A stretch of DNA of 63,993 nt, counting the filler, from Sanchytrium tribonematis (lineage: Eukaryota), in the NCBI GenBank assembly GCA_018985235.1. It is 13 parts of 13 records of this genome, joined end to end, with 100 filler letters (N's around TTAATTAATTAA, not from the genome) between each part and the next. Parts side by side here need not be neighbours in the genome. Positions count along the whole stretch, not along the records: positions 52,761 to 55,067 come from JADGIG010001079.1; 12 more parts are not named here. One strand, 5' to 3'. This document shows positions 2,283 through 57,463 of this stretch, piece by piece; the stretch's first letter is position 1, and each line of letters starts with the position of its first letter. The position numbers were made by a program, and so were the translations under genes. The notes below the pieces were generated by a model, which was not told the DNA's origin, made no database searches, and saw only the letters and a list, made by a program, of their open reading frames with translations.

Positions 2283-2303
2283 TTATTCTAATAAGTGTTT
2301 GGG

Positions 2304-4708: not shown

Positions 4709-4911
4709 TTATTTTAAAGGAGGTTTCAAACATCTCTTTGGTTTCAAAATTTTACACCTAATATAATCCAGGTCTTAGATGATTCATCCAATATCAGTTG
4801 TCACAACTCAATGTTATGGAGCACAAATGTCTTGTTGTGCCCAAATTGCAAATTAGTGCGACTCTGTGTAACGCAATTTTTTGATAAAATTTACAGAGAA
4901 CTTAATTTGAA

Positions 4912-5706
4912 ATGATTCAACAACCTACGCAATGTGTTCAGAAAGCCAGGGAATTTCAAGCTCAATGTATATCACAAGGACTTAATGGGAACTTAAATCC
5001 ACAAATCTTAAGAAGTAATAATTTGATGTCATTGTTCGGGATGAACACCGGAAGTTTGGGACAACCTTCTGGGGTACTTGCACCTTTTATCACATTTGAC
5101 GTCAAGTTTTACCAAACAAGTGAGCAATTAGACCAAGCTCTTGGAACATTTTGTGGTAACTCCTGCGACCAAAGAAGACAAGAATTACTTCAATGCAACC
5201 TTGGAAATGAGTTAATGATTCAAAAACAGGTGTTTTGTCAAAGAACTAGCAACCAATATTGTTACTCTTTTTATTTTGAGAGAATGGGTCCGAGAATGTG
5301 GGAATGGGAGTATAATTTACCCGACCCAGATACAGGAAAGCCTGAAGTAGTTTGTCATCCTTGTACAAGCGGTATATTTGAAGTGCTGAGACAATTTACA
5401 TTAGATCCTGCGGTGCCTAGCACATCCATAAGTAATCCGGTCATGCCAGTGAATATGCCAAATATTCCAAATCCGCAACAGCAAACAATCGGAAGTGTGG
5501 GACCTCAAAATATGTTGGACCGGAGTCAAGCCCGTAATGTTTATTCGCAATTATTTTCTAAATACACAATGGTTTGTCCAAATACACAGGCAGTCAACAC
5601 GATTGCTGCAATGGATCCGACGAATCCAAACAATCAACGAATCAAAAATGATTCTGCAGGGTTTAGTATTCTCTATATATTTTTTGTGATATTCAATTGC
5701 TTATGA
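4912..5706 (+). CDS. Cys/Gln/Pro-rich hypothetical protein with hydrophobic C-terminus (possible GPI-anchored surface protein)
   Basis: 264-aa ORF with about 10 spaced Cys and a C-terminal NDSAGFSILYIFFVIF tail. Confidence 0.6.
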   Translation: MIQQPTQCVQKAREFQAQCISQGLNGNLNPQILRSNNLMSLFGMNTGSLGQPSGVLAPFITFDVKFYQTSEQLDQALGTFCGNSCDQRRQELLQCNLGNELMIQKQVFCQRTSNQYCYSFYFERMGPRMWEWEYNLPDPDTGKPEVVCHPCTSGIFEVLRQFTLDPAVPSTSISNPVMPVNMPNIPNPQQQTIGSVGPQNMLDRSQARNVYSQLFSKYTMVCPNTQAVNTIAAMDPTNPNNQRIKNDSAGFSILYIFFVIFNCL

Positions 5707-5720
5707 GATTAGATAATTTA

Positions 5721-6515
5721 TTAAAATGTATTCATGGCGAATTTGATGTACTCATAAACACTCCAGACTATAGCCGTGGAGGGGACATGAGTAGCAATTC
5801 TCGGAATCGCGCCACGAAAAAAGGTTTTTATGCCATGTGTCTGATATGCTTTTTTGACAATTGAGATTGCATCAAGACGACTCATGTTTGGATTAATTTC
5901 GCCTCGAGTTTGTATAGTGGTCTTCAAAACATCCAACGGATTAGTCACCACACTAGCTACACCACCAGCAAAAGCGCCTCCAATGCAAATTACTGTAGGA
6001 TCATATTCATTGACAGTGTTCCGCCAATGTAGAAGCTTTGGTTTTATTGTTTCATAAATTGAAAAATGAATCATATTGAATGGAACAGTAATTGATAAAC
6101 TTATAGGATATGAAATATAAAATGAACGCAAACCTTCTCTGGAATAAACTTTTTCAATACATTCTCGTATAGACCTATAATTATGTATTTGCATTCTTTG
6201 TTTGACTACATCAAAAGGAGTCTGAAAAGCCTCTCCTACCATTGTTCCCAATGCCGCCGCTATTGTAGGATTAGAAGAGTCTTTAAAAAATTCATACACT
6301 GAAAATTGTAATGCATGTGCTGGTCCGGCACCTATCAATATTGATTGTACACCATTCCAAAGTGAATGCTTTGTCGGCAGTGCAAAAAGAACTTGTTGTC
6401 TAGTTTTCATGGTATCTATTGGGAACACAAGTGAATGCTCGGCTATTCCGGCCAAAGCACCCGCTAGACAATGTAATTGTACTGAGGTTCCTACGGGAAG
6501 TAATTCTTCTTCCAT
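5721..6515 (-). CDS. Mitochondrial carrier, mitoferrin (Mrs3/4)-like
   Basis: AGALAGIAEHSLVFPIDTMKTRQQ, GAGPAHALQFSVYE, three PxDxxK carrier signatures. Confidence 0.9.
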   Translation of the reverse strand: MEEELLPVGTSVQLHCLAGALAGIAEHSLVFPIDTMKTRQQVLFALPTKHSLWNGVQSILIGAGPAHALQFSVYEFFKDSSNPTIAAALGTMVGEAFQTPFDVVKQRMQIHNYRSIRECIEKVYSREGLRSFYISYPISLSITVPFNMIHFSIYETIKPKLLHWRNTVNEYDPTVICIGGAFAGGVASVVTNPLDVLKTTIQTRGEINPNMSRLDAISIVKKAYQTHGIKTFFRGAIPRIATHVPSTAIVWSVYEYIKFAMNTF

Positions 6516-6558
6516 ATCTGATTGGGTTTAAAGGGGGCATTGTACAAAATCAATATTT

Positions 6559-7776
6559 TTATTTTATCATAATAATCATCTCATCGTCGAAATTTGGGGA
6601 GAGGGCTAAGACAGGCTTTTCCAATTTAAACTTTTGAATCTTCATTGACGATTCCGAGAATTCTCTTGACAACTCTTCAGGTTGTTGTTTATCGTAAAAC
6701 GACTGTTGGTTTTCTATATATCGCTGCTGTATTTCATTATGACAATCAACTTCGGATTTGGCTTTGCTTGTGATTTTGTCCCATTTTTCTGATCTATGAT
6801 GATTTCTGAAATGCTCCTCGATTTCCTTTTGACGACTTACGCTCATCAAAGATCCCTCCATGACTTTTCTATATGTCATTAAAATATAGGGCTCGGGAAT
6901 TTTTGTAAGCGATATCATTTCCTTTAAGAAACGTTTTTGATTCCAAAACATTTTCGTGCGTCGCTTGATTTTTTTAGGAAGCCTCAGAATATGAACGTAT
7001 TCCGATTGTACCATAATTCCGGCGTAAACCATAGTATACAGATCATAGGCATCAGTTGTTGTACTTGGGCAATCATGAGCAGAAAAAAGCTCACGATCTT
7101 TCAAATCTATTTCAGGAAACCTCTTGTTATCATGAATATATTTGGCGACAAAGGCCCTCAAAAAAGTGGTCAGTATTTTAGTTCCTTTACCAGGTTGCAT
7201 ATGTCTTATTATTAGAGAAAGGCAGTCCATCGGCATCTGTCCCTTGAAATTAAACATGGAAAGATATCGAGGCAGTACAGTGGGATTGTCAGCAATCCAA
7301 AGACCGAGCTTTAAGGGGTCGATTAAAACTCTATATTCGTAGAATAAACAAGCCAAATCGTCAAATTCAAAAAAGTGAGTCAGTAAATATTCAATTCCAT
7401 AGAATGGCATCGTATTAAAGAGATGCAGACCTTGAGTGGCGAAATAATCCAGTTTGTCTTTTCCGATGCTGTTCTCACTTTGAGAAAATTTGTCAAGGGA
7501 CGATTTCCTCGAAAACGACTTGCCTTCATCCGACGGATGCGAAAGTTCAATTCGAGTCAACGAGGTATGCATAGGTGCCTCAACTGAAACAGTTTTTGTA
7601 TTGGATAAGGGCGAGACAGGCACTGAAATAGTCTCTCGACTAGTTTTCATTTTACTGAGATTATTTTGTCTTTCAACTTCTTTCTCCATAGCATCCAATA
7701 TTTGAGACTCTCTGTTTCTCCAATATTCCATAATTTGCTTTGCCTCGTAATCGTTTTCGCTTGGACTTGTGGTCAT
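6559..7776 (-). CDS. Divergent Sec7-domain (ARF-GEF-like) protein
   Basis: GLHLFNTMPFYGIEYL, LGLWIADN, RYLSMFNFKG, AFVAKY and YTMVYAGIM follow the Sec7 fold; the FRLPGE motif is degenerate. Confidence 0.65.
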   Translation of the reverse strand: MTTSPSENDYEAKQIMEYWRNRESQILDAMEKEVERQNNLSKMKTSRETISVPVSPLSNTKTVSVEAPMHTSLTRIELSHPSDEGKSFSRKSSLDKFSQSENSIGKDKLDYFATQGLHLFNTMPFYGIEYLLTHFFEFDDLACLFYEYRVLIDPLKLGLWIADNPTVLPRYLSMFNFKGQMPMDCLSLIIRHMQPGKGTKILTTFLRAFVAKYIHDNKRFPEIDLKDRELFSAHDCPSTTTDAYDLYTMVYAGIMVQSEYVHILRLPKKIKRRTKMFWNQKRFLKEMISLTKIPEPYILMTYRKVMEGSLMSVSRQKEIEEHFRNHHRSEKWDKITSKAKSEVDCHNEIQQRYIENQQSFYDKQQPEELSREFSESSMKIQKFKLEKPVLALSPNFDDEMIIMIK

Positions 7777-7862
7777 TTGCAACAATGCAACAAAAAGTCT
7801 TAGAAACTATATAAAGCAAGCAAGATGAGCATCGCACCAATCATAATCTTTTATTTGATTGA

Positions 7863-8036
7863 TCACTTATTCGTTGCAACCACTTCCAATAAATGCGCTC
7901 TCTCCAGATTCATTAACTTGATCATTCTTCTTAGTCTTATTAATTTTAAATATATTCTGTCATTTTCTTCTTCCATTTCCGTTATACGTGATTTAAGTTC
8001 AGAGTATTTAATGGAATAATCTTGAGTGCTGCTCAT
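7863..8036 (-). CDS. 57-aa coiled-coil protein resembling the INO80E/TFPT/Nhp10 N-terminal coiled coil
   Basis: Hand translation MSSTQDYSIKYSELKSRITEMEEENDRIYLKLIRLRRMIKLMNLERAHLLEVVATNK; KY..LK....EEEN and LERA.LLE pattern. Below the ORF-track size cutoff. Confidence 0.7.
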   Translation of the reverse strand: MSSTQDYSIKYSELKSRITEMEEENDRIYLKLIRLRRMIKLMNLERAHLLEVVATNK

Positions 8037-8184
8037 TTTCAATTCAATACAAAAGGAGTAAACGCGCCTATCAACAACATAATAGTAGGGTAGGCATATA
8101 GACTAAATAACCCGGCAGTAAACACGACTTAAAGATTTGTAAAAATTTACGCTTGGCCTAGCTGAAACTCCATCTCAGCGTCAG

Positions 8185-8976
8185 ATGAATAATACTTCTA
8201 CTCTAGCGCTGCTTCTGGCATTGTTATTCACAGTTTGGTCCATTGTGATTTTACAACGAGACTTGAAGAGAGGATTTAGAAGTGAATTGTTTGGAGCTTT
8301 GAGACTAGCTTTATTATTTATTTCAGGATTATTTGTGGGAAGTGCTCGTTTAAATACGTACTCTTATGATCCAATTCAGCAGAGAATGGTCCCCCCACCA
8401 GAAGAAGTTCGAATTGCTTTGAAAACTACAATGTTGTTTTGTTTTGGTGGAGTCTTGGCAGAGATCTATGGGCTTGTACTTAAGAGATTAAAAGCACCTG
8501 ATACTATTGTAAATACTGTTTACAGTGAAATGACTGGCATCCTGGTTGGTGGAACCAATTTAATGGTTGTCGTTTTAGACGTTTTGGGAAGAGATTTTTC
8601 TTTGCTTTGGACTATGATTATGTTGACTATCGACTTTTGCACAGATGTCTACATTGCACGTAGAATGTATATGCTAAAGGAGTATACTACTTCAAGTGAA
8701 CACATGTCCATTTTTAGAAATACCCTAACTTCTATGGTCTTTTACTTTGGATTTATGCTTTCTGCTCTAGTCAATATGTTCTCTCAGAACGCCTATGTAG
8801 CTTTTATTGATCAGATTTTCATTCTCCTATGCTTTGGATCTATTGTCATGTCCAAAGTTGAACTAAGAGGACATTTAGAACAAATCAAAGAAAAAGAAGA
8901 AATGGCTCCAAAACACGAAACTGCAAAACAGGGTCTTTTGTATGAAGAGGATGGATTGCGAATGGATGTGGAATAA
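8185..8976 (+). CDS. Multi-pass (6-7 TM) membrane protein, possibly GPCR-like
   Basis: 263-aa ORF with repeated hydrophobic helices and an N-terminal NNTS sequon. Confidence 0.6.
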   Translation: MNNTSTLALLLALLFTVWSIVILQRDLKRGFRSELFGALRLALLFISGLFVGSARLNTYSYDPIQQRMVPPPEEVRIALKTTMLFCFGGVLAEIYGLVLKRLKAPDTIVNTVYSEMTGILVGGTNLMVVVLDVLGRDFSLLWTMIMLTIDFCTDVYIARRMYMLKEYTTSSEHMSIFRNTLTSMVFYFGFMLSALVNMFSQNAYVAFIDQIFILLCFGSIVMSKVELRGHLEQIKEKEEMAPKHETAKQGLLYEEDGLRMDVE

Positions 8977-8989
8977 ATTGTTGACGTAT

Positions 8990-10019
8990 TTACTTTTCTT
9001 TCCAACTTTGTATTAATTTTGCAAAATCTTTCACGATTACGTTTTCCTCTAAATAAAAAATCTGTACCTTTACCCTTAACCCAAGGGTGACGAAGTAATT
9101 GTTTGGGGTTCCACCTATCTTTTGGCTGCTTTTGTAGGCTTTTATCTAGAAAATCAAACATAAGAGTTTCTGTCGAAGTTGCTGATTTTTGAAATGGCTG
9201 TAAAGTTTTAAGAATATCTTCATGTATTATGACTTGAATTAATTCAAAAACAGACATAGGGGGCGAAGTCTGAAATGGTACAGTCCCAGTAAACAATTCA
9301 ATTACCATTAGTCCAAGAGACCATGAATCAGCTTGAGATGCGTATTCTTTGCCTTGAATTCTTTCCGGAGCCATATACAAAGACGTACCAACAAAAGTAT
9401 TGGCGATAGAATTTACAGCCTCCCCACTCACACCAAAATCGCAAAGTTTAAAATATCCATCTGAATTTAACAATAAATTCGAAGGCTTGATGTCTCTGTG
9501 CATGATTTTAAAGTTATCGTATAAATAAACTAGCCCAAGTAATACGGATACACTTAGAGAATTGAGAATCCCTTCCTGTAATCCCTTCTTAGTATTTGTT
9601 AGAGATAATTTTAAAATTCCATCTAATGAGCCCAGATTCATATATTCAATGCACAAATAAACTTGATTATCATAAATGTAACCTCCATAAAAATCAATAA
9701 TGTGAGTAAACTTAACGGAATGCAAAATATTCAATTCTCTTATAACATGTTTTTCGTTGATTTCATTAGTCATGCTTATGACTTTTCTTGCCATTATAAC
9801 TTCTCCTTTCTTTACTAAGCTGACCACCCCACCACTACCATGTCCGAGTTCTTTAACGAGTTTGAAGTCTTGGTGCTGCAAGGGCGTCGCAGAAGTGGAC
9901 AAATTAGTTAAAGCGCTGCTGATGCTATCAATCGGTTGTGCTGCATTTTCTTCAACGGAGGACGACTCCAAGCTAATTTTTAGTTTCTTGGATTTCTTGA
10001 ACTTGGGCTGGCTACTCAT
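8990..10019 (-). CDS. MAP kinase kinase (Ste7/MEK family), 2 exons, 19-nt intron at 9049-9067
   Basis: Basic N-terminal docking site, LGHGSGGVV, HRDIKPSN, DFGVSG, NSIANTFVGT. Splicing gives HPWVKGKEENVIVKDFAKLIQSWKEK-stop and removes the apparent overlap with the 8185-8976 gene. Confidence 0.92.
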
Positions 10020-10247
10020 TTTTGAAAAAGGTGTTTCAGTTCGATTTATTATTGCAAATTTGAAAATTAACAAGAAATGACACCAATCAATAGCTATTAA
10101 ATTTAATAAAGCAAATCATTGCTGCAAAACGAGGCATTTGTTCTCCAGTAACTCACAAAATTATGTTCTCCTCCACAGATTAATAAATTTAAAATAAAAT
10201 ACAAATTTATTAGATGATATGGTACTATAAATGAATTGACAAGGTTA

Positions 10248-11907
10248 TCACCTTATCGTTTTTTTCCGACTTAATGTGGCAGATTTTTCTTCAGCCTTTT
10301 GCAGCGTTTCACCACTTCCACTGCGTTCTATTGTGGAGAATATTCTCATGAATCCTTCTATATGAAACTGAAATACCTTTTGCTTTATCGCCAATTGCGC
10401 TAGGCCTCCTCAAAGTAGCAGTTTTCGATTTTTTAAAATTATTGTACGAGTTTAAAATACTCGTAAGTTGCTCAAACAGCCTACGTATGGCGTTACTGGT
10501 ATCTGGGTTTTCACTGATTATGAGTTCCAGACCTGGGAGAGAATTTAACAAAAATGTTATAAAATCCTCAGTGATCGGAATTTTGTCATCTTCAATACTT
10601 GAAACTTGTGACAAAGTAAATAAACTCGCACTGGCATCTCTATCTTGCTTTGAAGATACCGATACTTCATGAACAAATTCCTTTATCTTTGCTTTGTTTT
10701 CTGAATTCAATGAAAGTCGTGCCAATGTGGTTGGCTTGTCAGAAGATTTAGCTAGATCTAACTCATTACACATACTTACCAACGCCCTCCCTATTTGAAT
10801 GAGCCCTCTCATTTTATTAGGTGGAATTTCAATAGAAATAATATGCTGCTGTACTGGATTAGTTATGGCAGGTACAAATATGCGAAGAAAAAGAAAGCTG
10901 GCTAGAATAGTATCTACAATAGTATTTGCCACAGCCTTGGATCGCTTCCGATGGGTGTTTTTACCATGAACTTTAGTTCTCCTAAGTGTAGATTGCCTCC
11001 TCTCTTCAAAACTTGCGGACTCTTCTTCCTCTTCTGTTTTTATTTCAGGGGATTTAGGTTCTTCAAAAATTTCGGATTGAGCAGCAAAATTCTTTCTAAC
11101 TGACGTTTTTCTAGCCAACGAAGCTTTCCTTTGTATATTTGGTCCACCTATATCTCCAATTTCCTCCTCAGCTTCCTCTTTTAACAGATCAGTAAGGCCA
11201 CCATCTGAGTTTTTTATACTCTCTCTTCTTTTCAATCCTGAGTGCTGTAAATCTTGTTCAACATCCTCTTCAGACATTTTTGTAAGTGCTGCTGTAATTT
11301 TAATCCTCAAAACGGTACAAACTCTAAGTATTGGCTCTGGCACATTATCGACATTTGAAACAACTGCGTTAACAATTCGATTCACTTCAATTTGTATGAT
11401 TTTTTCGGCTCTTTCTTTACCTTCTTTGTCACCATCATCTACTTGTAATAGATCTAAAGATGGAATCATCTGTTCAATAACGACCCCAAAGACAGATTTG
11501 AAATATTCTTCACAGTTTTCCTTAATATATTGTAAAATCATTAACATTATTAAAGAATTATCTCTAAGAACGTTTTTCATATCCTGAACGCTTTCAATTT
11601 TAGAGTAGTGTGACTGCACCTTTTTTTCTAATAGTTGGAAAATAAAATCTTCCAGTCTTTCTTTGCAAGCAAAATGTATAATGTCCATGAAACTTTTAGA
11701 TGGTTGGGAAGTATCGCTTATTTTTGTATTACTCGCTATGAAAGCTGAGAGACATAAATTGTCTTCCAATAAAACTGTTAAGATTTGGCGTTTGTGGTGA
11801 TTTAACGTGTTTTTTTCCGAGTTCTCCATAGCTTCAATCAGCGTCGCGGAATTATCTCGATGTAATTCTTTTTCTTTACGTCTTAATGTACCGCTTCTTT
11901 GAGACAT
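10248..11907 (-). CDS. RasGAP-domain protein, probable 19-nt intron at 10358-10376
   Basis: LRDNSL arginine-finger region and FLFLRIFVPAITNP RasGAP signature. The consensus intron GTATTTCAGTTTCATATAG gives an alternative end ...LSRKKTIR-stop. Confidence 0.8.
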
Positions 11908-12120
11908 TTTTTAAAAGTGGGTAACTTTGAGTCGAATTTTAAATGCAACACGCGTTAACATAAATAAAGATAGTTGATGAGTTTAACAAGAAAGAATGGA
12001 AGTAAAACCGGACGTGGGTAAATCTTAGTGCAAGTAACTTTGTAATTTTTCAACTACCAATCAGATTTTCTGATTTGACCAATTTCAACTATATCAGAAG
12101 ACGTAGACCAACCAGCCAAA

Positions 12121-12507
12121 ATGTTGCACATTTCAATATTATTCGCTCAGGCCAACTCACAATTGGGTACATCATCGCATCTAGATGTAAATTCAGTTTC
12201 AGAGCTTTTACCAAAAGATGTTAGCTCAAAAATGTCAGCTATTAAAACTGCGATGAACAATAATAATAAGATTTCCCAAGACGACATTGACAAAATTCAG
12301 CAAGAAGAAAGCGACAAAATTCAAGCCCTGATCAAACAAAAGCAAGCTGAAATGGCCCCACCGCCTCCCCAACAACCGTCTCAAGCGGGTACCCCAATGG
12401 AGCCATCACATAAAGATAACGATGGTCCCTCTTATCATTCAATGTTCTCTTCTTCACCTACGATGACTATCTCTTTAATCGTACTCTCTTTGTTGAGTAT
12501 TTTTTGA
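12121..12507 (+). CDS. Small secreted, probably GPI-anchored protein
   Basis: Hydrophobic N-terminus, Pro/Gln-rich linker, Ser cluster followed by a hydrophobic C-terminal tail. Confidence 0.6.
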   Translation: MLHISILFAQANSQLGTSSHLDVNSVSELLPKDVSSKMSAIKTAMNNNNKISQDDIDKIQQEESDKIQALIKQKQAEMAPPPPQQPSQAGTPMEPSHKDNDGPSYHSMFSSSPTMTISLIVLSLLSIF

Positions 12508-12512
12508 GGGCC

Positions 12513-14367
12513 ATGTCAACTTGGAATCAAATAAAAATTCTTCAGCGATTATTCTACAAATTTTCAAGGCACGAAGAAATTGACATGAATAGCCTAGACC
12601 AAATACTTATAAATTTGAGTAGCCCTTTTCCAAAATCCTGGTGTAATGACTATTTTACAAATTACACTATTGGTAAAAATGAATTTATTGATTTTATTTT
12701 AAATGTATATAACCCTAAAAGAAAGGAGTGGATAAAATCACTAAATCAGATATTCCTATTATTCAAAGATGGTAAAATTGCTTCTTCTGAATTTTATAAA
12801 AATATCGCCCATATCTTGTCAATTGGCGAATTTGAGAAAATTGAAAAGCTCATAACTCAAATGAAATTTAATGAGGTATTGGAACTACTTTTGCTAGATG
12901 ATATTTTAAATTTTAACTCGGGCTTGGCAGTTGAATTGGCAAATTCTCCTTGTATTAGTTATGCGTCCCGTCTGTTGAAGAAAATTGTTGAATTTTCTGA
13001 CTTCTCAATTTCAGTAGAAGGAAGCTATACAATAGAAATTACTTTATTGCATGAAAGCAAAGCAACTCACATATTTTCCAAATTCTGTGATTCAAGACTT
13101 CAATTTGAATTTCAATTGTCGCCAGGTATATTAGTTGATATCATTACAAATGCTCTATATCAACAAGCTTCTATTGAAATTTTAGACCTAAATGGTATTG
13201 TATTATTTTTTCAAAATATATCTCTGTCGGAATTTTTTTTTGAAAAATCCATTAAACGAAATCATACATTGATTATGGAATCAAATATAGAGGGGAATTG
13301 TGTGATTCAATTTGAATACCGTGATTACACCCAAGACAAATATTGCTTCGAGCAATTATTCGATGCATTTCAAATCACTTTGAGGCAGTCACAATATTCA
13401 AAATTAAAAAATATCAACAGAAACTTATCAAAAAAATTAGATAGTTTGTATCAGACTTACCCATCAAAAACGTTTCCGGTTCTTTGGATGTTTGAGGAAA
13501 ATCAAACTCTAATTACCGATATAATCACCTGCCATGAAAATGACAGTATTCTTATTCATAAGCAAGCAGAAACTTTCAGTTTCACGCTTTCAAACAAGCT
13601 TGCCTATAGCTTAGATTCCTTGGATATAATTTCAAAATTAAAACATCTGGAATCTAAAAACGTTATGCTTGAAAGGAAAGGTGGTTTTAAGGGTCACCAT
13701 ATTTCTATTTTTATCAGATCGATTCGAGAATGCTATCAGGAGAGGCGCATGTCTGCTTTAGAAAGTGTGATACATGCTTTTGGACACCAAGAATATCGAG
13801 GTTCGGAATTAGTTTTGGGTTGGAAAAACGGCTATCCTATGGGATCAATTGTAAAGCTGGACCAAGTGATTCACTCTGGTATAGTTGAAAATAGAACAAA
13901 CATTGAAAACATTTACGACGAAATATCAATTATTGTAACTGATTCATTACTTTATTTTTTTACAGGAAATTGGTAATACTTGTTAATTTAGTAGCCAATA
14001 CTTGTCACTAAAAACCAAATATCTCATTCCTATCAACGAACACAAAATGAATTTGGGGCGCCATAGCTGCAGCAATTTGCGAATTGTACCGCCTTTAAAT
14101 TCCGAGATTGAAATTATTTTATTGACAAAAATCAAATATTATAGACGATCTCTAGGCTTGGATTTCAAATGGGATAGATCCACGTCAATGGGTATCACTT
14201 GTAGGGGCAGACCTGGACTTGTGGAAATTCATTGTTCCACACTAGATATAGAGCTAATGTTTGAAAGGATTTTAAGATCAAGAATTTTGAATCTTGATGG
14301 AGTATATATATTCAAGGCGCACCTTGTACGTCACTGGTGTGTCATCATTGGTCGGACTGAAAACTGA
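12513..14367 (+). CDS. Hypothetical protein (~610 aa), 2 exons, 19-nt intron at 13973-13991
   Basis: ORFs 12504-13976 and 14002-14367 are joined in frame by removing GTAATACTTGTTAATTTAG. Confidence 0.7.
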
Positions 14368-14487
14368 AATAAAATTTTAAGACTTCCAATCACATGATCC
14401 AATCACCAATTTTCTGGTATTGGCTCATGTCCAATCAAAATCTAACATGAACCCATAAAAAGCGGTATCCCCACAATACAGAACTTA

Positions 14488-15150
14488 ATGACTGCTCAAC
14501 GTTACGAATACTTATACACAGACAGCACTCCAGATAGCGTCAAATGTGCAAAATGTCACGAAATCCCTGAACGTGTCTATCGTGACTGCGAATTGGAATT
14601 ACTTTTCTGCCAAAACTGCAGAAGTCGAACTTCAATGTATGACACTTACCTTCAACACATTTTGGACCAATGCTTAGTCATGTGTCCAAACACAGACTGC
14701 GACCTTATTTGCAAACGTGGAGAATTATTGGTGCACTTGGCTGAACAATGTGAAAAACAAATCATGCCGTGTGAAAATAGTGACGTCGGATGCAAATGGT
14801 TTGGAAAGAGACAAGAACACGAAGATCATGAATGCCAGTTTGATTTCATTGCTTCAACTTTAAGATCTATGAAAGAATCTATATTTGATTCTTCAAGTTT
14901 AACAAGAGAGAATGAGATGCTGAGAAAAAGAATTGAAATTTTGGAATCCAACGCCTACAAGGTTCCTGCAGTTATTGCTGCACCATTTTCCAATGAAGGA
15001 TATGTTGAGGAAACTGTCGAATACTCCCCTCCTTTGATTATCAAGAAAAAAAGAGTTATGACTGAAAAACCTATTCGTGAGGATATGATGACAATTCATG
15101 ATAAGATTTTATCTGAATTGCAACAACGTTTAAAACTTCGAGTTAACTAA
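14488..15150 (+). CDS. RING-like plus TRAF-type zinc-finger protein with coiled coil
   Basis: CAKC...C...FCQNC, then CPNTDC...HLAEQC and CENSDVGCKWFGKRQEHEDHEC. Confidence 0.8.
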   Translation: MTAQRYEYLYTDSTPDSVKCAKCHEIPERVYRDCELELLFCQNCRSRTSMYDTYLQHILDQCLVMCPNTDCDLICKRGELLVHLAEQCEKQIMPCENSDVGCKWFGKRQEHEDHECQFDFIASTLRSMKESIFDSSSLTRENEMLRKRIEILESNAYKVPAVIAAPFSNEGYVEETVEYSPPLIIKKKRVMTEKPIREDMMTIHDKILSELQQRLKLRVN

Positions 15151-28848: not shown

Positions 28849-31160
28849 CATCGTGGAAAGCAGCAAAGTCAATGATGTCGAATGCAGATTTTCGAAATAA
28901 TTTGATGAATTTAGATTTTGATTCACTCACTCATCATCAGATTCATAGCATTGAAAAGATCATGAAATCCTCTGAATTAAGTCCAGAAAAAATGAAAAAG
29001 ACCTCTTCAGCTGGGCACGCTTTGTTGGAGTATGTAATTAGCATTCTGCAATATCATTACATCATGACTGATATGAAACCCAAAATTAAACAAGTCGATG
29101 AATATGACAAGCAATTAGCAAAGCTCATTGAGAGCAAAGAGCAAGTTCTTTTCGATATTGAAGATTTGGAGCAAGACATTGTGAACTTAAAATTGCAGCT
29201 TTTATCTTTGGAAAAAAGTCTCTTGATTGTTGACAAGAATATTGGTCTTTGGCTAGAAATTGAAAATAAGCTGAATTTCTTAAGATGTCAATTTGATATG
29301 ATAACAAAATTGTGTAATGCCAAAATATCTATATTTGATAGAATCTTGCTTTCAGTAGATCAAGTAAGTTTTCATGCAGTATCAAATTTATTAGGTTATG
29401 CGGAGTACGAGATTCCTGAGTTGTTAGAATTGGCATTATTTGATATATTTAATGGTCTGCAAACTAAAAAGGAAATTCAAAAATACATTTTGTGGTTAAA
29501 TGTTCCTCAGAGGTATATTGTTGAAGATCCTTATCTCCAAATATTTTCAGCTTTGCAAAAATCACCGAATCTTACAATTTTGGATGTTTCGGATCGAAAC
29601 TTAAGAAAAAAAGTGGCCTTTTCTTTAGAAAACAATAAGCACGTTGTTATTGTGACGCCTTGTTCCAGTTTGGTTCCACTCGATGTCGTTCCAGACAAAG
29701 GTCATTTTACAATTTACTGTACTAAGAAAGATTCAGAATTTTACAATCTAGCACCTATTATTTTCAAAGAAAAGTGCTTTCCACTTCCTTGCGACAGTTT
29801 TTATAAGGAAAATTTTGAGAAAATGAGTGATTTGAAAATCCAGTTTCAATCTCATACTGTTCAATTTTTCAATTTGATTGGGTCATTTGTCAAAAGCTCG
29901 GAAGGCCATTTGATTGACGAATTTATTGAAGTCATCTCAAATTACGTTTCAACTGCAACTTCCATTCTAAATTGTAAAAATAATCTTTTATGTTTAAAGT
30001 TTCAAGATTTTTACAGAGAAGAGAATAGTTTATTGCAAATTTACCAATTGTTCCACAAAAATTATGTACTTTCGTCCACACTTCTTTCCACTAAATTATA
30101 TTCTTGCGGATTGGAGTCTGTTTTCAAACAAAGCTTACTGCCTATGCATCAGGCGGACTTTTATACAGGCTCCGCTAGTAGCATTTATGATTGCATTCGA
30201 AATTTAAGTCCATTGGGTCCTGTTTTCCTCTTTTCACATGGTGACTCTAGCTATCAAATCGCAAAAGAAGCTATTTCAATTATTAGCAGAGCCTCAGTAA
30301 AATCTTTGGGGACAAATTCGAACTGTATATATTACAACTTGTTAAACTTATCGAAAAATGAGCTAGTTGAAATTTATCTTCAATTTCTAAATGGCGATAT
30401 TTTCGGATTTATCGACATTCCGTATTTAGAATTAGAGACCGCCGATCCTATATTATTCGAAATTTTAAAATTGGGATTCAAATTAAGCACTTTAGTCCCT
30501 CTAGTTCTGGAGAAGGTTATTTCTAAAAATTTGGAGATTTCAATCAATATGCCAAGCAAAGAGAAATTTTTGACATTTCATTCCATTGTGAGCTTTTATA
30601 TCGAGCTCAACTTAATTGTATTGTACCAGCAGTATTGGTTTGACAATTTGATATCAGTGATCGAAAGTTGCAGCAGTATGGAAATTCAATTCAATTTAGA
30701 ATACTTTTACTTCAATAATCTTCGCAATTTGAATGAAAAAATTATTTGCTCCAACTTGTATGCCTATATCTCATCCGTTTGGGATATTTACGACAGCGAG
30801 GAGAGAATCAAGGTAATTTTGGAACAGTTTCAAGAATCAGATCCATTTCCCTTTTTTGAGTCAACGAAGCCTCTGCCACCGCTTGATAAGTTTAAAGAGT
30901 TTTCCAGCTTACAGTTCCTTGAAGATCTGAATCACGCACAAATGTCTTTTTGGTCTACCTCTCATTACATCGATTTAAAAATGCTTCCAATTCCTAGTAA
31001 TTTACTTTACTTTTTTGACCCTGACTTGCTTTATATTGACGGTATACCGGTCTTGAATGTCTCTTTGAATTCAGTGGAACCACAAAAGTCTGTTCTTGTG
31101 CATGGCATCAATTTAAAAAATGGATTTTTGACCAATGCTGGATTATGTTATGCACAATCA
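28849..31160 (+). CDS. Highly divergent axonemal-type dynein heavy chain, C-terminal part (MTBD/stalk, AAA5, AAA6, CTD)
   Basis: SWKAAKSMMSNADFRNNLMNLDFDSL and SSAGHALLEYV (MTBD), coiled coil, YIVEDPYLQ...LDVSDRNLRKKVAFSLENNK (AAA5), SPLGPVFLFSHG (AAA6), LVHGINLKNG (CTD). Confidence 0.75.
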
Positions 31161-41261: not shown

Positions 41262-43281
41262 ATGTCTCAAGTGAAAGAAGTTAAAGCTTCAAGCGCCTCT
41301 CAAGAGCAGTCGGATTTTGTCTTGCCGCTCCCAAAGCAAATGCTAGCACCTATGCCCGCAGCAGAAAGAGCCAAGCCGGTGAAAATGGATTACAATTTCA
41401 GAAACCAATTAGTTTATTCTAATAACAAATGTATCTATTTATTGGATGCTAAGACAACCTCGCATATGTCTGCTAATGCCGAGGTTTATGGAGAACATCT
41501 CCACCCAGTGAGCGCGGTCAGCTTTACTCCCTCGGGTTATTATGTGAGCAGTGGTGACCAAAGTGGGCAAGTTAGAATTTGGGATGTCACTCAACCAGAG
41601 CATATCACCAAATACAATTATGAGATTTTCAATGGTGCAGTTCTAGACATTGCTTGGAATGAAAACGATAGACTCATTGTTGGAGGAGATGGCAAGGAAG
41701 AAAAAGTCAAGGGAATATTGTGGCATACAGGCACAACTATTGGTGAATTCCCGGGTCACTCTAAACAGGTCAATGCAGTCGCACATACCAAACAAAGGCC
41801 TTTTAAGGCTTTTACTGCAAGTGATGATATCAGTGTGAATGTTTATAGTAATATTCCATATGTCTTTCAATTAAGCTTGAAAGATCATCAAAGATTTGTT
41901 AGTGATGTCAGCTGTAACAATTCTTTAATGTTAAGTGCTGGATTTGACGGTCTGGTGAACATGTATGACATCAAACAAATTGGCAAGGTGGAAAACAATG
42001 GTAGAACCCCTATACAATGTCACGACGCAGCAATTATGAGCATGGGGGTTCAAGAGGAACAATTTTGTACTGCATCATTGGACAAATCTATCAAAATTTG
42101 GGATATTCAATCTGCCAAAATGATTCACCAATATCAAATCGGGTCCTCTATTGAATTTCAGCAAATGGGTTGTGTCTGGAATCAACATAGTAATGGAATC
42201 TATAGTGTTGGATTGGATGGTACGCTATATTTTATGGACCCTCGACACAAAGACGTTCAAATTAAAAATGTCATTAAGCGTTGGAATGGACATGCAAAGC
42301 CTGTTACAGCATTGAGTAATGAAGTATTAGATGGCAACGAAAGAAGTACTTTATATTGATTTAGCATTTTGGAGTGCTAGTTATGACGGTAGGGTCATTC
42401 AGTGGAAGGGTACTTTTGAAGGCTCAAAATTTTCAAACTTGCATAATAATACATTGTATCAACATACAAATCAAGTTACTGGACTTGTCGCACACAAGAA
42501 TGGCATTTTAAGCGTTGGGATGGATGACCAACTGATTAGTACTGAAAAACTGGTCACTTTGACAGATTCTGTACAAGCAATTCCAAAAACAAGCACAATT
42601 AAAGGCAAAGTGCAAGGATTAGCTAAAGGTCTATCAGTGATTAAAAATACTGCCATCATAGCGTCTACTAATGCATTACAGACTATCAAGATTTCAGATA
42701 TCGGCCTAAATCCTACTACCATTAAAAAAGGAGATTTTAGTTCAGTTGCTTCCTCTGAAAAGTATGTTGTAGTTGGAAGTGGTGCAAATGCGTATGTTTA
42801 TAAAACGGAAAACATTTTGTCTAATGCCAACGTCGAACCTATTGTGACCTTTAAAGTCAAAGGAAATGTCACTTGTGTACTCATTACTCCAGATGATGAG
42901 TACGTTGTGACAGGGTCATCGGAAAGGCAGGTCGCACTGCATCAAATCTCTAGTAAAGAAACTGTCATTGATCAATGGGTCTTTCATAGCAGTAAGGTAA
43001 CTGCAATTAGCTGTAGCCCAGAAAAGATTGATGGTCAGTGGTTTATTGCAAGTGGAGCTGTGGATGGAATTATTCTGATCAATAGACCAGACAAACCTTT
43101 GGAACCCAAAAAAGTCCAGCCTGCACATTTGGAAGGTGTTAATTGTGTCGAATGGCTGAACACATTTAAAAGAGACATTCCTGATCCCAAAGAGAAGGAC
43201 AAAAGCTTAACAGAAACTGTTGCAGTTATCAAAAGTTCAGGTGGTGACGCTTCCGTGAAGTTGTGGGAAATTGTGCTATGA
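41262..43281 (+). CDS. AIP1: Actin-interacting protein 1 (Aip1/WDR1) WD40 protein, 2 exons, 19-nt intron at 42346-42364
   Basis: PSGYYVSSGDQSGQVRIWD, GHSKQVNAV, QRPFKAFTASDD, WVFHSSKV. Splicing gives ERTFWSASYDG. Confidence 0.92.
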
Positions 43282-50348: not shown

Positions 50349-52660
50349 GATTAATTTGTCTTGGAATGTATGGAAAAATCATATCTTTACCAAAAACCGA
50401 ATGTCCGGGACTGGTTCCTAAACTGGAATGATAATTTGCACGCATAAACCAAGCAATTGCAGGTAATTTATGATGCCAATTATTTGATACTCCACCGGAT
50501 GTTCTTATGTGTTCTTTAATTGTGGAATGAGATCTTTCTATGATGGAATTTGACTGCGGATTGTAGACAGTTGTATATTTGTGCTGTATTCCATAACTTG
50601 CCAATATTCTTCCATTTCAAGGCCAATCAGATTCTTTCCTTGATCTGTCAACACATATTGTGGTCGAGGATATCTACAAAGCCATGTTTCATCAAACATT
50701 GTTGCAATAGTCTTTCCACTTGTGTTGTTTAATGGAATAATTTCAATATACCTGGATTTAATATCAATCATGGTCAATATATGGGAATATTCCACACCAT
50801 GCTCTTCAGAAATTTCACTCATTGGTCCAACAATATCAAGTGCCACAATTTGGAAGTTATTAATGTCTTTATCAATGGTAGTAGGGTTTAATTTACCATA
50901 ATTTTTCTTATTCTGTTTATCAATTTGACAGGTGTGACATCTTTTAATAAAATCAGCTACATCGGATTGCATTTTGTTCCAGTAAACGTATGCCTTGATA
51001 GTATTGTACATACGATTCCATCCTGGATGTCCTAGAAAATCATGCGCCCAAACCAGTAGATGTTTTTTAATTGCGCTTGGTATAATGATTTGATATGTGT
51101 CTTTCTTGCAAAGTAATTTCACATTTTCAATTTGTTTAATACAATATTTAATTGAATCATTTGGTGATTCTAATTCCTGACCAGACAAAAGAGAACTTAA
51201 AAATGGGGCCAACTGAGGGTCTTTTTGCTGTACATCCTGTAAATAATGCACAGAAAGTGGAAAGTCGTCAATTGCCATGGTTTCTAAATATGATTTGTTG
51301 AAATTCATACGGGATAGAAAATCTGCAACAACATTTGTAGCACCAGCAATATGCTTAATGGTTGGGTGGAAATCAACAATTTCCATATAATATCGTTGCA
51401 ACTTCATACTGTGGGAGGATTGTAAGTATGAAAGATTTAAACTGTCAGTATAAATGATTAATTCACAACCATAAAGTAATTTGCGTAAATGTTGAAGTAT
51501 AGAAATAACTGCCAGTGCTTCTTTATGCACTACCGTATATTTCAATTGAGTGGGATTAAATTTACGAGAATAAAAATAAATTGGATTTGGGATGTTTGCA
51601 TCGTCATATTGGAAGACGCAAACACCTAAACCGTAATCACTAGCGTCACAATACAAATGAAAAACCTTTTTGAAATCCGGGTAGACCAAAAGGGTCTTTG
51701 TTGCTAATAATTTTTTACATTCATCGAGTCGATCCTGCAATTCGTTTGTCCAATTGAAACCGTTTCTTTTGCGTGTCAATTGTGAAAGGGGAGCAAGTAA
51801 CGAAGCACACTGTGGAATGAATCTACGAAAGAAATTTAGCATGCCTAATTGGCTACGGAGATCGGAAACATTGGCTGGCCGTGGTAATGCTAAAATATTA
51901 GAGATTTTAGCGGGATTTGGCTTAATTCCTGACTGAGTTAAAATAAATCCAAGATATTTTAGCTCCATTTTCCCAAAATTTGATTTTTTTATATTAATTC
52001 GGATGTAATTATCCTCTAAAATCGTAAAAACTTCTGCTAAATGTGTAATATGTTCTTCTTCAGTGCGGCTGAGTATTAGAATATCATCCAGATATATTAA
52101 TACAAATGGCAAATGTCCGAAAAGGCCTATCATCACTCCCTGAAACGCCTCAACGGATGTTTTAAGTCCTTGTGGCATGCGATTATATTTGTAAGTACCC
52201 CAGGGGAATACTACACATACATATTTCGCAAAATCAGGGTCTAGCCTTAACTGGTTGTACGCACCAGTCTGATCCAATGCTGTAAAAAACATATTTTTGC
52301 AAACCTTATAAAGTAGTTCATCAATGCTCGGTATGTAAACTGCTCTTCGGGACAAAAATTGGTTGAGGTAAACTGCATTTATAAGCAACCGTAAATCACC
52401 ATTTGGTTTGACTGCAAAGAAACCAGGGTGTGTATAAGATGCACTTGAAACTTTTGTCAAAATTCCCTCTTTTACCATTTTTGCGATCTTTTCCTGAGCT
52501 TTTTGGAGTAATTTATAGGGCACCGGGTAAGGTTTAACAATTTTGGGTACGACAGGCTTAATTAAATCGGTTTTAAAGAAGTACCCCTTGATATAATTGG
52601 GTTTCGATTTTATGGATTTTAAATAAAATTTCAAAATATTCATTAATTCTTTCTTTCCTT
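50349..52660 (-). mobile_element. Ty3/gypsy LTR retrotransposon pol (RT, RNase H, integrase), one frameshift near 50605, truncated at both ends
   Basis: RMPQGL, YLDD, YCDASDYGLG, NVVADFLSR, His/Cys zinc finger (HDFLGHPG...CHTC), DDE residues LDIVG / TDQG / IERSH. Confidence 0.95.
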
Positions 52661-53247
52661 NNNNNNNNNNNNNNNNNNNNNNNNNNNNNNNNNNNNNNNN
52701 NNNNTTAATTAATTAANNNNNNNNNNNNNNNNNNNNNNNNNNNNNNNNNNNNNNNNNNNNTGAAGCAAAAATGAATCATTGTTCATTTAATTTGTTGTTA
52801 TTTTAATTGATTGGCAGAAAATTAATGTGCCACGACATTGCTTGCCAGCGAGCAAGCGAAAGTTTCAAGACAGCTGTTTGGTTGAAAAAGACTTATTTTT
52901 TATGTTACCGATCCATAAAATAAGAAAGCGCTTCCTTTTAGTACCAATTCTGATAATTCGAGTGCTAAAAAAATCATTTAGAACAAAGGATAATGTTTGC
53001 CCAACATGATCTATGGCAGTTAATTTGGCTTTTGATTTTTTTTGGACTAGTTTGTTACTGATTTATTGATTTTCAACCTACAATCCATCAGTCCTACTAA
53101 ACAAGCTCAACGGTATGTAATAATGGAACGTATAAAAAACTTGTTATTTACAAAAGTACTCTGTGGAGCAGCTAATAGTTTCAACATTTTGATTGGATTG
53201 GGATTCATCAAATTCAAACAAAACCAGTCAATTTCCCCTTTGAACAA

Positions 53248-53940
53248 ATGGCAAATGTTGAGGAAAGACTACAACCAAATCAAGATCAAGAAACCTTTTT
53301 AATCTATATGGGAGTGTGTGTAGTTGTAATTGGTATTTTATGGCATTTACCGTTTGTCAAACACATTCTAGACCCTTTCAAATTGATTGTAGTTGCTCTA
53401 CATGAAGTAAGTCACGCCATAGCTGGTCTTGCTACTTGTGCTCATATTGTTAGTATCGAAGTCACTGCAGATCAAGGTGGGGTCACAAAAATGAGGGGCG
53501 GAATTGCTTGGATCACTTTACCAGCTGGTTACATTGGAAGTGCATTTTTTGGTGCGCTCATGGTGTTCAGCACATTTAATACTACCGCGTTGTATGTGGT
53601 TAGTGGTTTCATTATTTTATGTTTAGTTTTTGTCCTTATTAAGGCAAGTAACTGGTTGAGTCGAGGGCTCACAGTTTTGTTCATTACAATTATTATATTG
53701 ATATGGGTTTTTGCGGCTTACTATTTAAGATATTTTATTGGGTTTCTAGGCGTTATGAGTGGATCTTATTCTTTGTGGGATATGATTGATGATTTAGTTG
53801 CAAATGATAAACACCAGTCTGATGCAACCGTATTTGCGCAAAGATATGGAGGAAGTTCGAAATGCTGGGGATTTATCTGGTTTATTTTGGGATTAGCGTT
53901 GATGATTGGAAGTGCTGTCTTGGGACTTTATGCTTTTTGA
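53248..53940 (+). CDS. Peptidase M50B-like membrane metalloprotease
   Basis: HEVSH (HExxH), GGVT, LPAGYIGS, SDA motif, multiple TMs; CCCCTTT just upstream of the ATG. Confidence 0.88.
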   Translation: MANVEERLQPNQDQETFLIYMGVCVVVIGILWHLPFVKHILDPFKLIVVALHEVSHAIAGLATCAHIVSIEVTADQGGVTKMRGGIAWITLPAGYIGSAFFGALMVFSTFNTTALYVVSGFIILCLVFVLIKASNWLSRGLTVLFITIIILIWVFAAYYLRYFIGFLGVMSGSYSLWDMIDDLVANDKHQSDATVFAQRYGGSSKCWGFIWFILGLALMIGSAVLGLYAF

Positions 53941-54173
53941 ATCATTGAAATTATAAATTTATTTACGCACAGTCGATTTCTTTTCTATTTAGTGTTTGCA
54001 CCCTTAGACTGGCCAATTAATGGTTGTCATGGTCTTACTAAAGTTAGCTCGGCTTGGAATGTTCGATTTTCCTCTGATTTACTGACTGATATTGGTACAA
54101 ATTTTTAGAGGGTATTGAGCAACAATATCGTTCCTTTTTTACTTAAGTAAACAATCCACTAATTTGAATCTTC

Positions 54174-55067
54174 ATGGAGGCGGAAATTTTTAAGAACGAT
54201 ACGCAATTTCAAACATACAATTTACAAATGAAGAATGCTAAAAAATTCAATTTCGATCAATGCTCTTTTTTTCCAAACAAGCTGCCCAAAATATTTCATG
54301 ACAAAGATTTTCTCAAAAATGTAAAACATGCTTGTAAAACAACTAGCCAACAATTTGAGAGTGGTACAATTTTATGGCTTAAAGACAGCTTGAATCCAAC
54401 GCGAATGGAAGTGATTCATCCTCAAGGTTTGGAAAAATTAATTGAGAAATGTTTTGAAACTTCAAAGTATGAATTTCTGAAGGTTCTGAAAGACAACGGG
54501 AATAACACAGGAAACATTTATATAGCAAACGATGTGAATGTGCTCGACGATTTGCGCAAAAAATTAACGATAGGAAAATATGTGATGACTTTCCACATCA
54601 AGGATTTTTACGAGCAAATTTACACTTATATACTTATCTGGATGGAAAACGGTGCAATAAGTGAGGGGAAAGACGTCTGGAAATTATGGGACAGCTTATG
54701 CAACATTCAAGATAGTAAGAAAAAGATGTGGTTGGCATCGCTAGAAGAATCTATAGTGGTTTTACAATATCGTCAAAGTATTGGGTTGCCAACAGGGTCG
54801 GAATTGATCAACGAAATAGCTGAAAGTTGGTTGGTTTGCTTAGACTTCCAAATTAGAAACGAGATTCTCAACATCACAAAACAAAAGAAATCGACACGCA
54901 TCATACGAAGCCATGACAATTACGATGTAATAAGTGATAGTATAGACGATTGCACTAGAGTAACTAGCTTCATTATTCATAAAATTAGAGAATACATCCT
55001 GACTGTCAATCTATCATCCGCTACATGTAGTTATGAAGAAAAACCGCTTAAACTGAAAGATTTTGTT
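54174..55067 (+). CDS. Non-retroelement reverse-transcriptase-like protein resembling bacterial Abi/UG (DRT) RTs; catalytic motifs altered; 3' end truncated
   Basis: Ordered motifs FFPNKLPKIF, RMEVIHP, KYVMTFHIKDFYEQIYTYILIW, QSIGLPTGSELINEIAE...CLD, IRSHDNY, IREYILTVN. Confidence 0.75.
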
Positions 55068-56147: not shown

Positions 56148-56508
56148 GACGTATGCGTCACAGCAGACATCATCCGATCACTTGATTGGTATCAGATATC
56201 ACATCAGATGTTTGTAAGATTATTTACTAATTTGACTCAAATAATTGGCTAGTGTTCCCTGCTCTTCCTTCAATCGATTATATTGTTTACCGTATTCATG
56301 ATGTTGTTTTAATGCTTCTTTCAATGCATGTTGCTTATCAAATATTGATTTTATTAAATCAGAAGCCATTTCACGGAGGATGTTTTAAAAACCATGTGCG
56401 AGTTAATGTGATTTCAAGTATTACTATGAGTTACAAGTGCCAGCTACATTATAAGTTGAAATGCGTGAGTTAATCAATTTAGCGATAAACAAAACCGGTG
56501 ACTCGCAA

Positions 56509-57463
56509 ATGTTTAAAAGGGGAAATACTAAAAATACAACTCAAAAATCAGGTCATTTTACTCATATCCACATTAATCATGATTAATTTGGTACTATGGA
56601 CCATCACACTATTAATCTCCACTCCCAAATTTATCAGTTTGTGCATAGTGGCATATGTTTTGGGACTTAAACACGCAATGGACGCAGATCATATTTGTGC
56701 CATTGATAATATCACCCGTAAATTAATTTCAAGTAAACCTATATCTATTGGATTTTATTTCTCATTGGGGCATTCCACAATTGTGATTATTGCAAGTTTG
56801 TTGGTGATGTTAGCGAATGTATTTGCGAGTGAATCTGTACAAAATATATTTGGATTGGTTGGGACCATTGTCAGTAGTGTATTCTTGATATTTATTGGGT
56901 TGATTAATCTTCACAATGGATATAAAATGATAAAATCAAGAAATCAACCAAATCATGAAAATGTGATTTATGGTCCATTGGCTACTATTTTCAAAAGGGC
57001 ATTCAAACTAATACAATATCCGTATCAATGCTATCCATTGGGACTATTATTTGGACTCGGATTTGACACTGCGAGTGAAATTATTATTTTAACATTAATT
57101 GATAAATCATCCAATACAATCTTGATTGCATTATTATTTACAGCCGTGATGTGTTTGGTGGATACTATTGATGGTATCATGATGTTGAATATCTATGATC
57201 AGCTGAATTCACTGGTTAAAATGGTATTTAGTTAGTGACAATTTTAGGCGTTTTATTTTGCTTGTTTTTGAGTATATTGCAGATATTGCAACTGATTAAT
57301 GATGAGTATGAGATGCATTGGGATGATGTGGAAGCATTAAGTGACTCGTATTTGGTAATTGGAATAGTTATGATGATTTCATTTATTTTGACTTGGATAG
57401 TCGCATTTCTAATTGGTAGAAAACAAAGATTGAACAATAGATTACCTGACAATGATCTACAAA
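56509..57463 (+). pseudogene. High-affinity nickel/cobalt transporter (NiCoT/HoxN/Nic1 family), apparently frameshifted
   Basis: LGLKHAMDADHICAIDN, FSLGHSTIV, GLLFGLGFDTASE. Frame break at ~57233, and the ATG at 56509 is 1 nt out of frame. Confidence 0.75.

Follow-up and report, generated by a model that had tools for sequence, protein, structure and literature searches.

A multi-copy family of class 1 UG/Abi-type reverse transcriptase homologues with an altered motif C in sanchytrid fungi, and a probably inactive copy in Sanchytrium tribonematis

Introduction

The closest described systems to the gene reported here are the bacterial class 1 UG/Abi reverse transcriptases (RTs) Abi-P2, AbiK, DRT4 and DRT6. 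The active site of AbiK consists of D163, D247 and D248, and its D247N mutant is dead (PMC9508834). DRT4 is described as a hexamer that makes purine-rich single-stranded DNA (ssDNA) primed from Tyr125 and senses NrdAB and an SSB (10.64898/2026.10.27.754916), and a role for its Q23, the binding of the nucleotide metal by D149 and an RNase site of H160 and D192 are reported as well (10.64898/2026.10.21.760695). In the Ty1 RT, substitution of D129 or D210 abolishes polymerase activity, while the D211N enzyme still polymerises, 223-fold slower, with a preference for Mn2+ and with transposition blocked; retroviral RTs need each of the three Asp residues (PMC2148107).

Eukaryotic hits were removed from the UG/Abi survey of PMC9226505, and the available parts of PMC12632851, PMC11249213 and PMC8632793 mention no eukaryotic class 1 UG/Abi case. 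The openly accessible literature searched, bioRxiv supplements aside, yielded no paper on eukaryotic class 1 UG/Abi RTs and nothing pairing Sanchytrium with reverse transcriptase, and the words 'HGT', 'horizontal', 'transcriptase' and 'retro' do not occur in the available main text of PMC8371127. Large supplementary RT datasets (e.g. that of PMC12632851) may include sanchytrid sequences. In this study, we analyzed a class 1 UG/Abi RT homologue from Sanchytrium tribonematis together with its relatives, active site, phylogeny and genomic surroundings.

Results

The RT gene and its window

The window is the whole stretch of DNA analyzed, 63,993 nucleotides long, in which 13 contigs are joined end to end by N/TTAATTAATTAA linkers. 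The RT contig occupies positions 52761-55067 (2,307 bp, GC 0.348) and carries two genes, both on the plus strand, namely a Peptidase_M50B gene at 53248..53940 (PF13398, 3.5e-45), which an earlier note on this DNA had already placed on the contig, and downstream of it the RT ORF at 54174..55067. The ORF starts with an ATG and is free of stops over 298 codons up to the contig end, a run whose chance probability at this base composition is about 6e-11. Its 5' end is complete and its 3' end is cut at the contig end, so that the expected C-terminal helical domain is absent from the window, and what is encoded at 54174..55067 is the fingers and palm of a class 1 UG/Abi-type RT domain, placed by profiles, relatives and fold in a sanchytrid family which we call the 'DN' family. 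The contig had no match in Rfam, and its repeats are short two-copy ones at chance level. In a soil metagenome run (X2), a 218-base contig with a depth of 2.4 is identical to positions 54289-54506, a part of the RT.

The RT motifs follow each other in class 1 order, with FPNKLP at residue 33, VIHP at 80, FHIKDFY at 140, GLPTG at 204, IAE at 215, RSHDNY at 245 and YILTVN at 274, and the motif series described in the earlier note is thus in order, although its catalytic motifs differ from those claimed, motif A reading MTFHIKDFY and motif C RSHDNY. The N-terminal motif FPNKLPKIF (residue 33; 54270..54296, plus strand, as are all RT features below) matches the YFP.[QE]LP..F of DRT4/DRT6-type RTs. 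Motif A, FHIKDFY (residue 140; 54591..54611), has His141 in place of the metal-binding Asp (AbiK D163, DRT4 D149), while Tyr152 (54627..54629; residue number derived from the alignment) stands where the YTH motif has its His, the RNase residue H160 in DRT4. Glu191 (54744..54746) stands at the position of DRT4 D192, the second residue of the RNase HD pair, and the motif B region reads Q..Q..GLPTG....IAE (54765..54824). Motif C, RSHDNY (residue 245; 54906..54923), reads xxDN where YxDD is expected and retains Asp248. The YxDD loop that had been claimed for this ORF is therefore absent; the loop is S-H-D-N, the motif A Asp is a His, and only one of the three catalytic Asp residues is left.

Several other genes were observed in the window. 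A NicO/HoxN nickel transporter gene (56489-57463, plus strand; PF03824, 8.7e-41) shows a frame change near 57232, which might be a short intron, a frameshift or an assembly error, and two WD40 ORFs at 41262-43278 (plus strand) overlap by 26 bases in different frames, representing either one split gene or two tightly packed ones. A fragment at 28872-31160 (plus strand) has a weak dynein stalk match (PF12777, 3.5e-5), which would be of interest if the flagellum of the host is reduced.

Homology to class 1 UG/Abi RTs

The window ORF is a homologue of class 1 UG/Abi RTs of the AbiP2/DRT4/DRT6/AbiK type, as the earlier note had proposed, and PADLOC, the family profile and the Foldseek and structure rankings all agree on this. 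With PADLOC, the window protein matched AbiP2 (2.3e-13), Drt6 (1.1e-12), Drt4 (2.6e-9) and AbiK (2.5e-8), and the 11 families matched at E<=10 were all of DRT/Abi types. Class 1 models matched all 13 members of the family described below, with Drt6 as the top model for most of them. A profile of the 13 sequences searched against the PDB found Abi-P2 at 2.5e-23, DRT4/UG15 at about 1e-15, DRT6 at 2e-13 and AbiK at 6e-9, with a group II intron RT reached at 0.04 only, and a profile of the 12 relatives that excluded the window protein recovered the window RT ORF at 7.5e-69, the rest of the window scoring no better than E 0.33. The window RT protein had zero matches in Pfam and NCBIfam, Pfam RVT_1 likewise left all 10 scanned family members unmatched, phmmer with the window protein against the PDB gave chance matches only, and the ESM Atlas returned bacterial RVT_1 clusters only.

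A structural model of the window protein obtained from a 19-row alignment, bacterial class 1 rows included, has a pLDDT of 63.5, and the single-sequence model a pLDDT of 37. With the window model, Foldseek placed Abi-P2, UG15, DRT6, DRT4 and AbiK at the top ranks, and VIA-align superposed it on Abi-P2 over 196 residues (Z 14.9, rmsd 3.9), the best chain outside class 1 having a Z of 11.3. The RT motifs of the family members begin at about residues 30-55, and the full-length relatives share a conserved extension of 150-200 aa; the family profile aligns weakly to residues 161-522 of 7r08, a match that reaches into its helical domain.

Two other identities were tried and rejected. For an LTR/Ty3 RT, there was no Pfam match, the contig repeats are only short two-copy ones, and hhalign of the family profile gave 0.4% against the Ty3 RT of the window as opposed to 99% against AbiP2, in line with the unlikeness to that RT stated in the earlier note. 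For rvt (UG37), a resemblance had been suggested from the R.HD loop and L.CLDF, which the profiles do not bear out: RT_UG37 (PDLC03776) matches neither the window protein nor any member, lying outside the 11 families matched by the former (E<=10) and the 21 matched by the 13 members (E<=0.01). The Ty3-type gene itself (50349-52660, minus strand) encodes RT-RNase H-integrase with an intact YLDD, and its integrase resumes in another frame near 50540-50616, indicating that the copy or the assembly is frameshifted.

A multi-copy family in sanchytrids

An unfiltered phmmer search with the window protein against 1.84 billion representatives produced 19 hits at E<=0.001, of which the tenth (P0010), a repeat protein unrelated to RTs, was removed before all counts. 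The top nine hits (E 5e-53 to 5e-14, 29-43% identity) comprise four proteins from Amoeboradix gromovi and two from Sanchytrium tribonematis (both EukProt), along with three metagenome proteins, and P0012, P0013 and P0017 (ENA) carry the same family signature; together with the window protein, these make up the 13-member family. The remaining six hits, from 5.7e-7, are bacterial-type RTs with an intact RY.DD, five of which were assigned by PADLOC to AbiP2 and one as DRT4/6-like. Identity is 25-50% between paralogues and 18-50% over the family. Metagenome contigs are the source of six of the 13 members, among them those on the three deepest branches of the tree.

In the available eggNOG supplement of PMC8371127, at least 10 proteins of Amoeboradix, encoded on eight contigs, are assigned to a single bacterial RT group (08SK8), and P0001, P0002, P0005 and P0009 are four of these. 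All three Amoeboradix contigs examined (NODE_11, NODE_61 and NODE_154) have eukaryotic housekeeping neighbours in that supplement. NODE_11 (47 kb) holds two RT copies amid importin-5, LIG4, PHO91, a DDX11-type helicase, NADPH oxidase, a SUN protein, STE7 and MRS3/4, NODE_61 holds two amid Arf-GEF, TBC proteins, RCC1 and SNRPA, and NODE_154 has fungal neighbours and one bacterial-like hisC. Sanchytrid genomes hold several copies each of this RT family, located among housekeeping genes. The earlier note was right about the RT class and the early-diverging fungus, but it overlooked the multi-copy sanchytrid family with an xxDN motif throughout, and also the loss of the motif A Asp from the window copy, which is for that reason probably no active polymerase.

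Three side observations concern these surroundings. The hisC of NODE_154, which carries the closest homologue (P0001), has a bacterial best match in the available supplement and is possibly a second transferred gene. The first contig of the window (234-15147) encodes a DEAD_2 helicase, a ferric reductase/NADPH oxidase, a mitochondrial carrier, a kinase and a TRAF zinc finger protein, the same kinds of genes as NODE_11 with its two RT copies, and no RT remnant was detected in this part of the window. The Amoeboradix paralogue P0002 has a ubiquitin-like domain at residues 481-544 (PF00240, 6.7e-9) behind the helical region, a eukaryotic add-on to a bacterial-type RT.

Pattern scans, a method which reaches close relatives only, confirmed none of the candidates from IMG/VR (0/251 and 0/82), JGI metagenomes (0/367 and 0/254) or GTDB (0/23), and the family profile matched none of 19 genomes from one small bacterial phylum. 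Word-index protein searches with the window protein found no relative at near or longer lengths. The profile search for relatives returned just four proteins, and the range of the family is therefore under-sampled.

The active site

The active site was compared in an alignment of the 13 family members and 15 bacterial class 1 references. At the second Asp of motif C, every one of the 13 family members has Asn and every one of the 15 bacterial rows has Asp, while the first Asp of this motif is invariant over the 28 rows. The motif A Asp is kept in the 27 rows other than that of the window copy (His141), and so is the His matching DRT4 H160, for which the window copy has Tyr152. At the position of DRT4 D192, eight of the 13 members have Asp and five have Glu. 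The H..D pair is found across the class, including the AbiP2 and AbiK rows, and its presence is therefore no proof of RNase activity. In AbiK and DRT4, the aromatic residue of YxDD stacks against the product; three family members retain this residue and ten have lost it, and no invariant priming Tyr exists across the family in the loop that holds Y125 in DRT4. Two family members carry YFPNQ as in DRT4, and the window copy has a Lys at the place of DRT4 Q23.

The window copy breaks eight of 36 family-conserved columns, compared with 0-3 in eight of the nine other core members and six of 39 in P0008. In run X1, Asp248 is Glu (D248E), and no difference from the window is listed for motif A. A total of six differences were found in the RT ORF, four of them non-synonymous (D248E included), and none is listed for M50B; the non-synonymous share in host genes is 11/33 (Fisher p 0.18). 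Since the motif A Asp and the H160-equivalent His, kept in 27 of 27 rows elsewhere, are both lost, the window copy is, judging from these residues, very probably a dead paralogue. Both assemblies leave the ORF without a stop throughout its 298 codons, which fits some constraint on this 'dead' copy.

Phylogeny

Trees were inferred under LG+C20 from RT domains, 13 of them from the family and 15 from bacterial class 1 RTs, with outgroups added. The outgroup was made up of two or three bacterial RTs from outside class 1, free of rvt, PLE and TERT sequences, and the second tree was built without Ty3 and a further long-branched outgroup. In both trees, the DN family forms one side of a branch supported at 100/98, outside AbiP2 (100/99) and DRT4/6 (92/96), with its sister group among class 1 RTs supported at 65/61 only. 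Membership of the AbiP2, AbiK, DRT4 or DRT6 subfamily was rejected, given this separate clade (100/98) and bit scores 5-10 times lower than those of members.

Within the family, P0001 and P0004 are the closest partners of the window protein (97/91), and its branch of 1.40 is long compared with 0.44 for P0001 and 0.74 for P0004. Amoeboradix and Sanchytrium sequences group across genera as P0009-P0007 (99/95) and P0005-P0008-P0006 (97/93), which indicates that the duplications are older than the split between the two genera. With six metagenomic members, which include the three deepest branches, the clade may be partly non-eukaryotic, and the change from D to N may be older than the transfer. 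The Ty3 branch has a length of 6.3, and a tree joining Ty3 with the DN clade was not rejected (p-AU 0.32); this outgroup is too long-branched to inform, so the case against a retrotransposon origin rests on the profiles and the fold.

Host gene or contaminant

In run X1, a single 2,878-base record spans the M50B and RT genes (53073-55067) with nine differences, at a depth of 122.8. It adjoins a bubble of two half-depth records and continues about 880 bases beyond the contig end. A host contig is represented in X1 by main records with depths of 43-153, and by half-depth bubbles too. X1 may be the sample from which the window derives, but its differences occur at full depth with no bubbles, which suggests a different individual. 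Because this second assembly links the RT to M50B at host depth, contamination is unlikely.

The GC3 of the RT gene is 0.37, within the host range of 0.20-0.42, and its codon-usage score is the third lowest of 38 ORFs, yet inside the host range. The GC content of the first contig of the window is like that of sanchytrids (34.6-36.3%; PMC8371127), and this, with the kinds of genes on that contig, points to a sanchytrid or a close relative as the host. M50B belongs to a family also found in bacteria (32% identity match), and no 'M50B' appears among the available supplement entries of PMC8371127 that would show synteny with Amoeboradix. The earlier note had argued against contamination from a CCCCTTT motif before the start codon, an argument which proved weak, as M50B and the mitochondrial carrier are the only ones among 38 long ORFs to have the exact motif in the 40 bp before their start, and the RT itself lacks it there. 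Its conclusion of a host gene nevertheless stands on other grounds, namely the X1 linkage of RT and M50B at host depth and the location of the relatives on eukaryotic contigs.

Discussion

Taken as a whole, the explanation that we favour, with slightly more confidence than doubt, is that the ORF is a fungal nuclear gene, likely an inactive copy, of a family derived from a bacterial class 1 RT, the intact members of which are predicted to make ssDNA. Its steps differ in strength. A single transfer of a bacterial class 1 defence RT before the Amoeboradix/Sanchytrium split, followed by duplication, is highly probable. The intact members would probably still be slow two-aspartate polymerases, because the two Asp residues essential in the Ty1 RT are kept and the same D-to-N exchange leaves Ty1 active in vitro; the whole family may nevertheless be poorly active or inactive, since Ty1 D211N is so much slower, prefers Mn2+ and is blocked in transposition. 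More tentatively, by analogy with DRT4 and AbiK, intact members may form an oligomer, make Tyr-primed untemplated ssDNA in a channel between the RT and helical domains, sense a signal and respond through RNase activity or growth arrest. The proposed sensing target would be raised dNTPs or a foreign ssDNA-binding protein, making the protein a possible antiviral sensor, and defence would be the weakest step of the explanation, to be regarded as doubtful rather than probable. The window copy, in all likelihood unable to bind the catalytic metal, would be a product of birth-and-death turnover, somewhat more probably decaying than kept as a regulatory subunit.

The alternative that survives best, unlikely as we consider it, shares this origin and holds that the RT was domesticated for a non-defence job (terminal-transferase-like or nucleic-acid-binding, in repair, at chromosome ends or in the parasitic life cycle), with the window copy dispensable or regulatory. 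It would suit the orthologous paralogue pairs kept across two genera, the scattering of copies amid housekeeping genes rather than in clusters, the family-wide change of the active site and the ubiquitin-like fusion, and telomerase has been proposed as such a case from a class 2 UG RT (PMC12632851). The family with its at least 10 divergent copies, 25-50% paralogue identity and a degenerate copy has, however, the look of birth-and-death turnover. Genes involved in conflict show such turnover more typically than housekeeping enzymes do. In addition, the characterised class 1 relatives are antiphage (10.64898/2026.10.27.754916, PMC9226505).

Less likely still, all members of the DN family would be without catalytic activity and act as an oligomeric scaffold or a sensor of nucleic acids, in which case the further losses of the window copy would be nearly neutral. 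The second motif C Asp is lost in 13/13 members and the stacking aromatic in 10/13, neither the 10 members scanned nor the window protein match Pfam RVT_1, and retroviral RTs tolerate the loss of none of their three Asp (PMC2148107). Against this stands the invariance, at 18-50% identity, of the motif A Asp (12/12 other members), the first motif C Asp (13/13) and the Asn (13/13), which is hard to explain without metal binding, and the kept Asp pair is precisely the one that Ty1 RT cannot lose (PMC2148107).

A bacterial or viral contaminant or an amplification chimera is very improbable: the contig is only 2.3 kb long with M50B, of a family also found in bacteria, as its single neighbour, and the samples behind the reference sanchytrid assemblies had been amplified and were heavily contaminated (PMC8371127), but the closest relatives lie on eukaryotic Amoeboradix contigs of 17-47 kb in the available data and are found in two genera, X1 likewise joins M50B to the RT, at host depth and next to a half-depth bubble, GC (0.348) and GC3 fall inside the host range, and the GTDB, IMG/VR and JGI metagenome pattern scans, sensitive to close relatives only, confirmed no relative. 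A divergent rvt gene or retrotransposon-derived RT with an Abi likeness arisen by convergence is just as improbable, for although rvt is a known non-mobile, protein-primed RT of fungi (PMC9226505) and a grouping of the clade with Ty3 withstood the AU test, RT_UG37 is absent from the families matched, hhalign sets Ty3 far below AbiP2, and rvt is described as single-copy with an N-terminal coiled coil, while the sanchytrid genes come in several copies and begin only a little ahead of their RT motifs.

Returning to the favoured reading of a bacterial class 1 RT-derived fungal family, the weight of the finding rests on the family more than on the window copy. If vertically kept and expanded in a fungal phylum, the family would bring DNA synthesis without a template into the set of immune modules that eukaryotes have taken over from bacteria, next to rvt and the proposed link between DRTs and telomerase, and its fixed xxDN site is a natural test of the role of the third RT aspartate. 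The intact P0001 and P0007 suit the published AbiK and DRT4 assays, while the window copy is probably the least useful. A bolder version, which we regard as somewhat unlikely, would make this the first immune family of eukaryotes to be built from class 1 defence RTs of bacteria, with expanded protein-primed, template-free xxDN polymerases that keep the RNase pair and sense viral replication, and with dead paralogues as decoys or regulatory subunits.

Compared with known systems, the sanchytrid family shares with Abi-P2 (7r08) and AbiK (7r06/7r07; PMC9508834) the class 1 fingers and palm fold and the motifs DI..FY..IYTH, G[IL]P.GS and AE...LD, and Abi-P2 is the best structural match of the window RT. 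The full-length relatives (450-660 aa) are similar in size to these two enzymes and, like them, the gene stands alone without an ncRNA match. Unlike them, the family is eukaryotic, nuclear and multi-copy and has xxDN for YxDD, with the window copy also lacking the Asp equivalent to AbiK D163, and its PADLOC scores are 48-90 bits as against about 460-710 for true members. With DRT4 (UG15; 9vdo, 9ltm) and DRT6 (UG12; 9wy8) it has in common the N-terminal YFP.[QE]LP..F motif and, at the positions of DRT4 H160 and D192, H and D/E in 12 of the 13 members; it differs from both in not being nested there, in having Asn for D241, in the loss of Y238 from most members and in having no phage context. The rvt genes (UG37; PMC9226505) are likewise non-mobile, chromosomal, RT-related fungal genes, proposed to be protein-primed, but the sanchytrid family has no rvt profile match, is multi-copy, lacks the long N-terminal region and carries class 1 motifs. 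In Ty1 D211N (PMC2148107), the same second motif C Asp is changed to Asn in an enzyme that polymerises in vitro; that is an engineered mutant of an LTR retrotransposon, whereas the change in this family is natural and fixed. Telomerase, as a proposed eukaryotic offshoot of class 2 UG RTs (PMC12632851), is an earlier instance of a eukaryote that took up an RT of the bacterial defence type, but it is class 2, RNA-templated and near-universal, whereas the sanchytrid family is class 1-like, predicted to be template-free and lineage-restricted.
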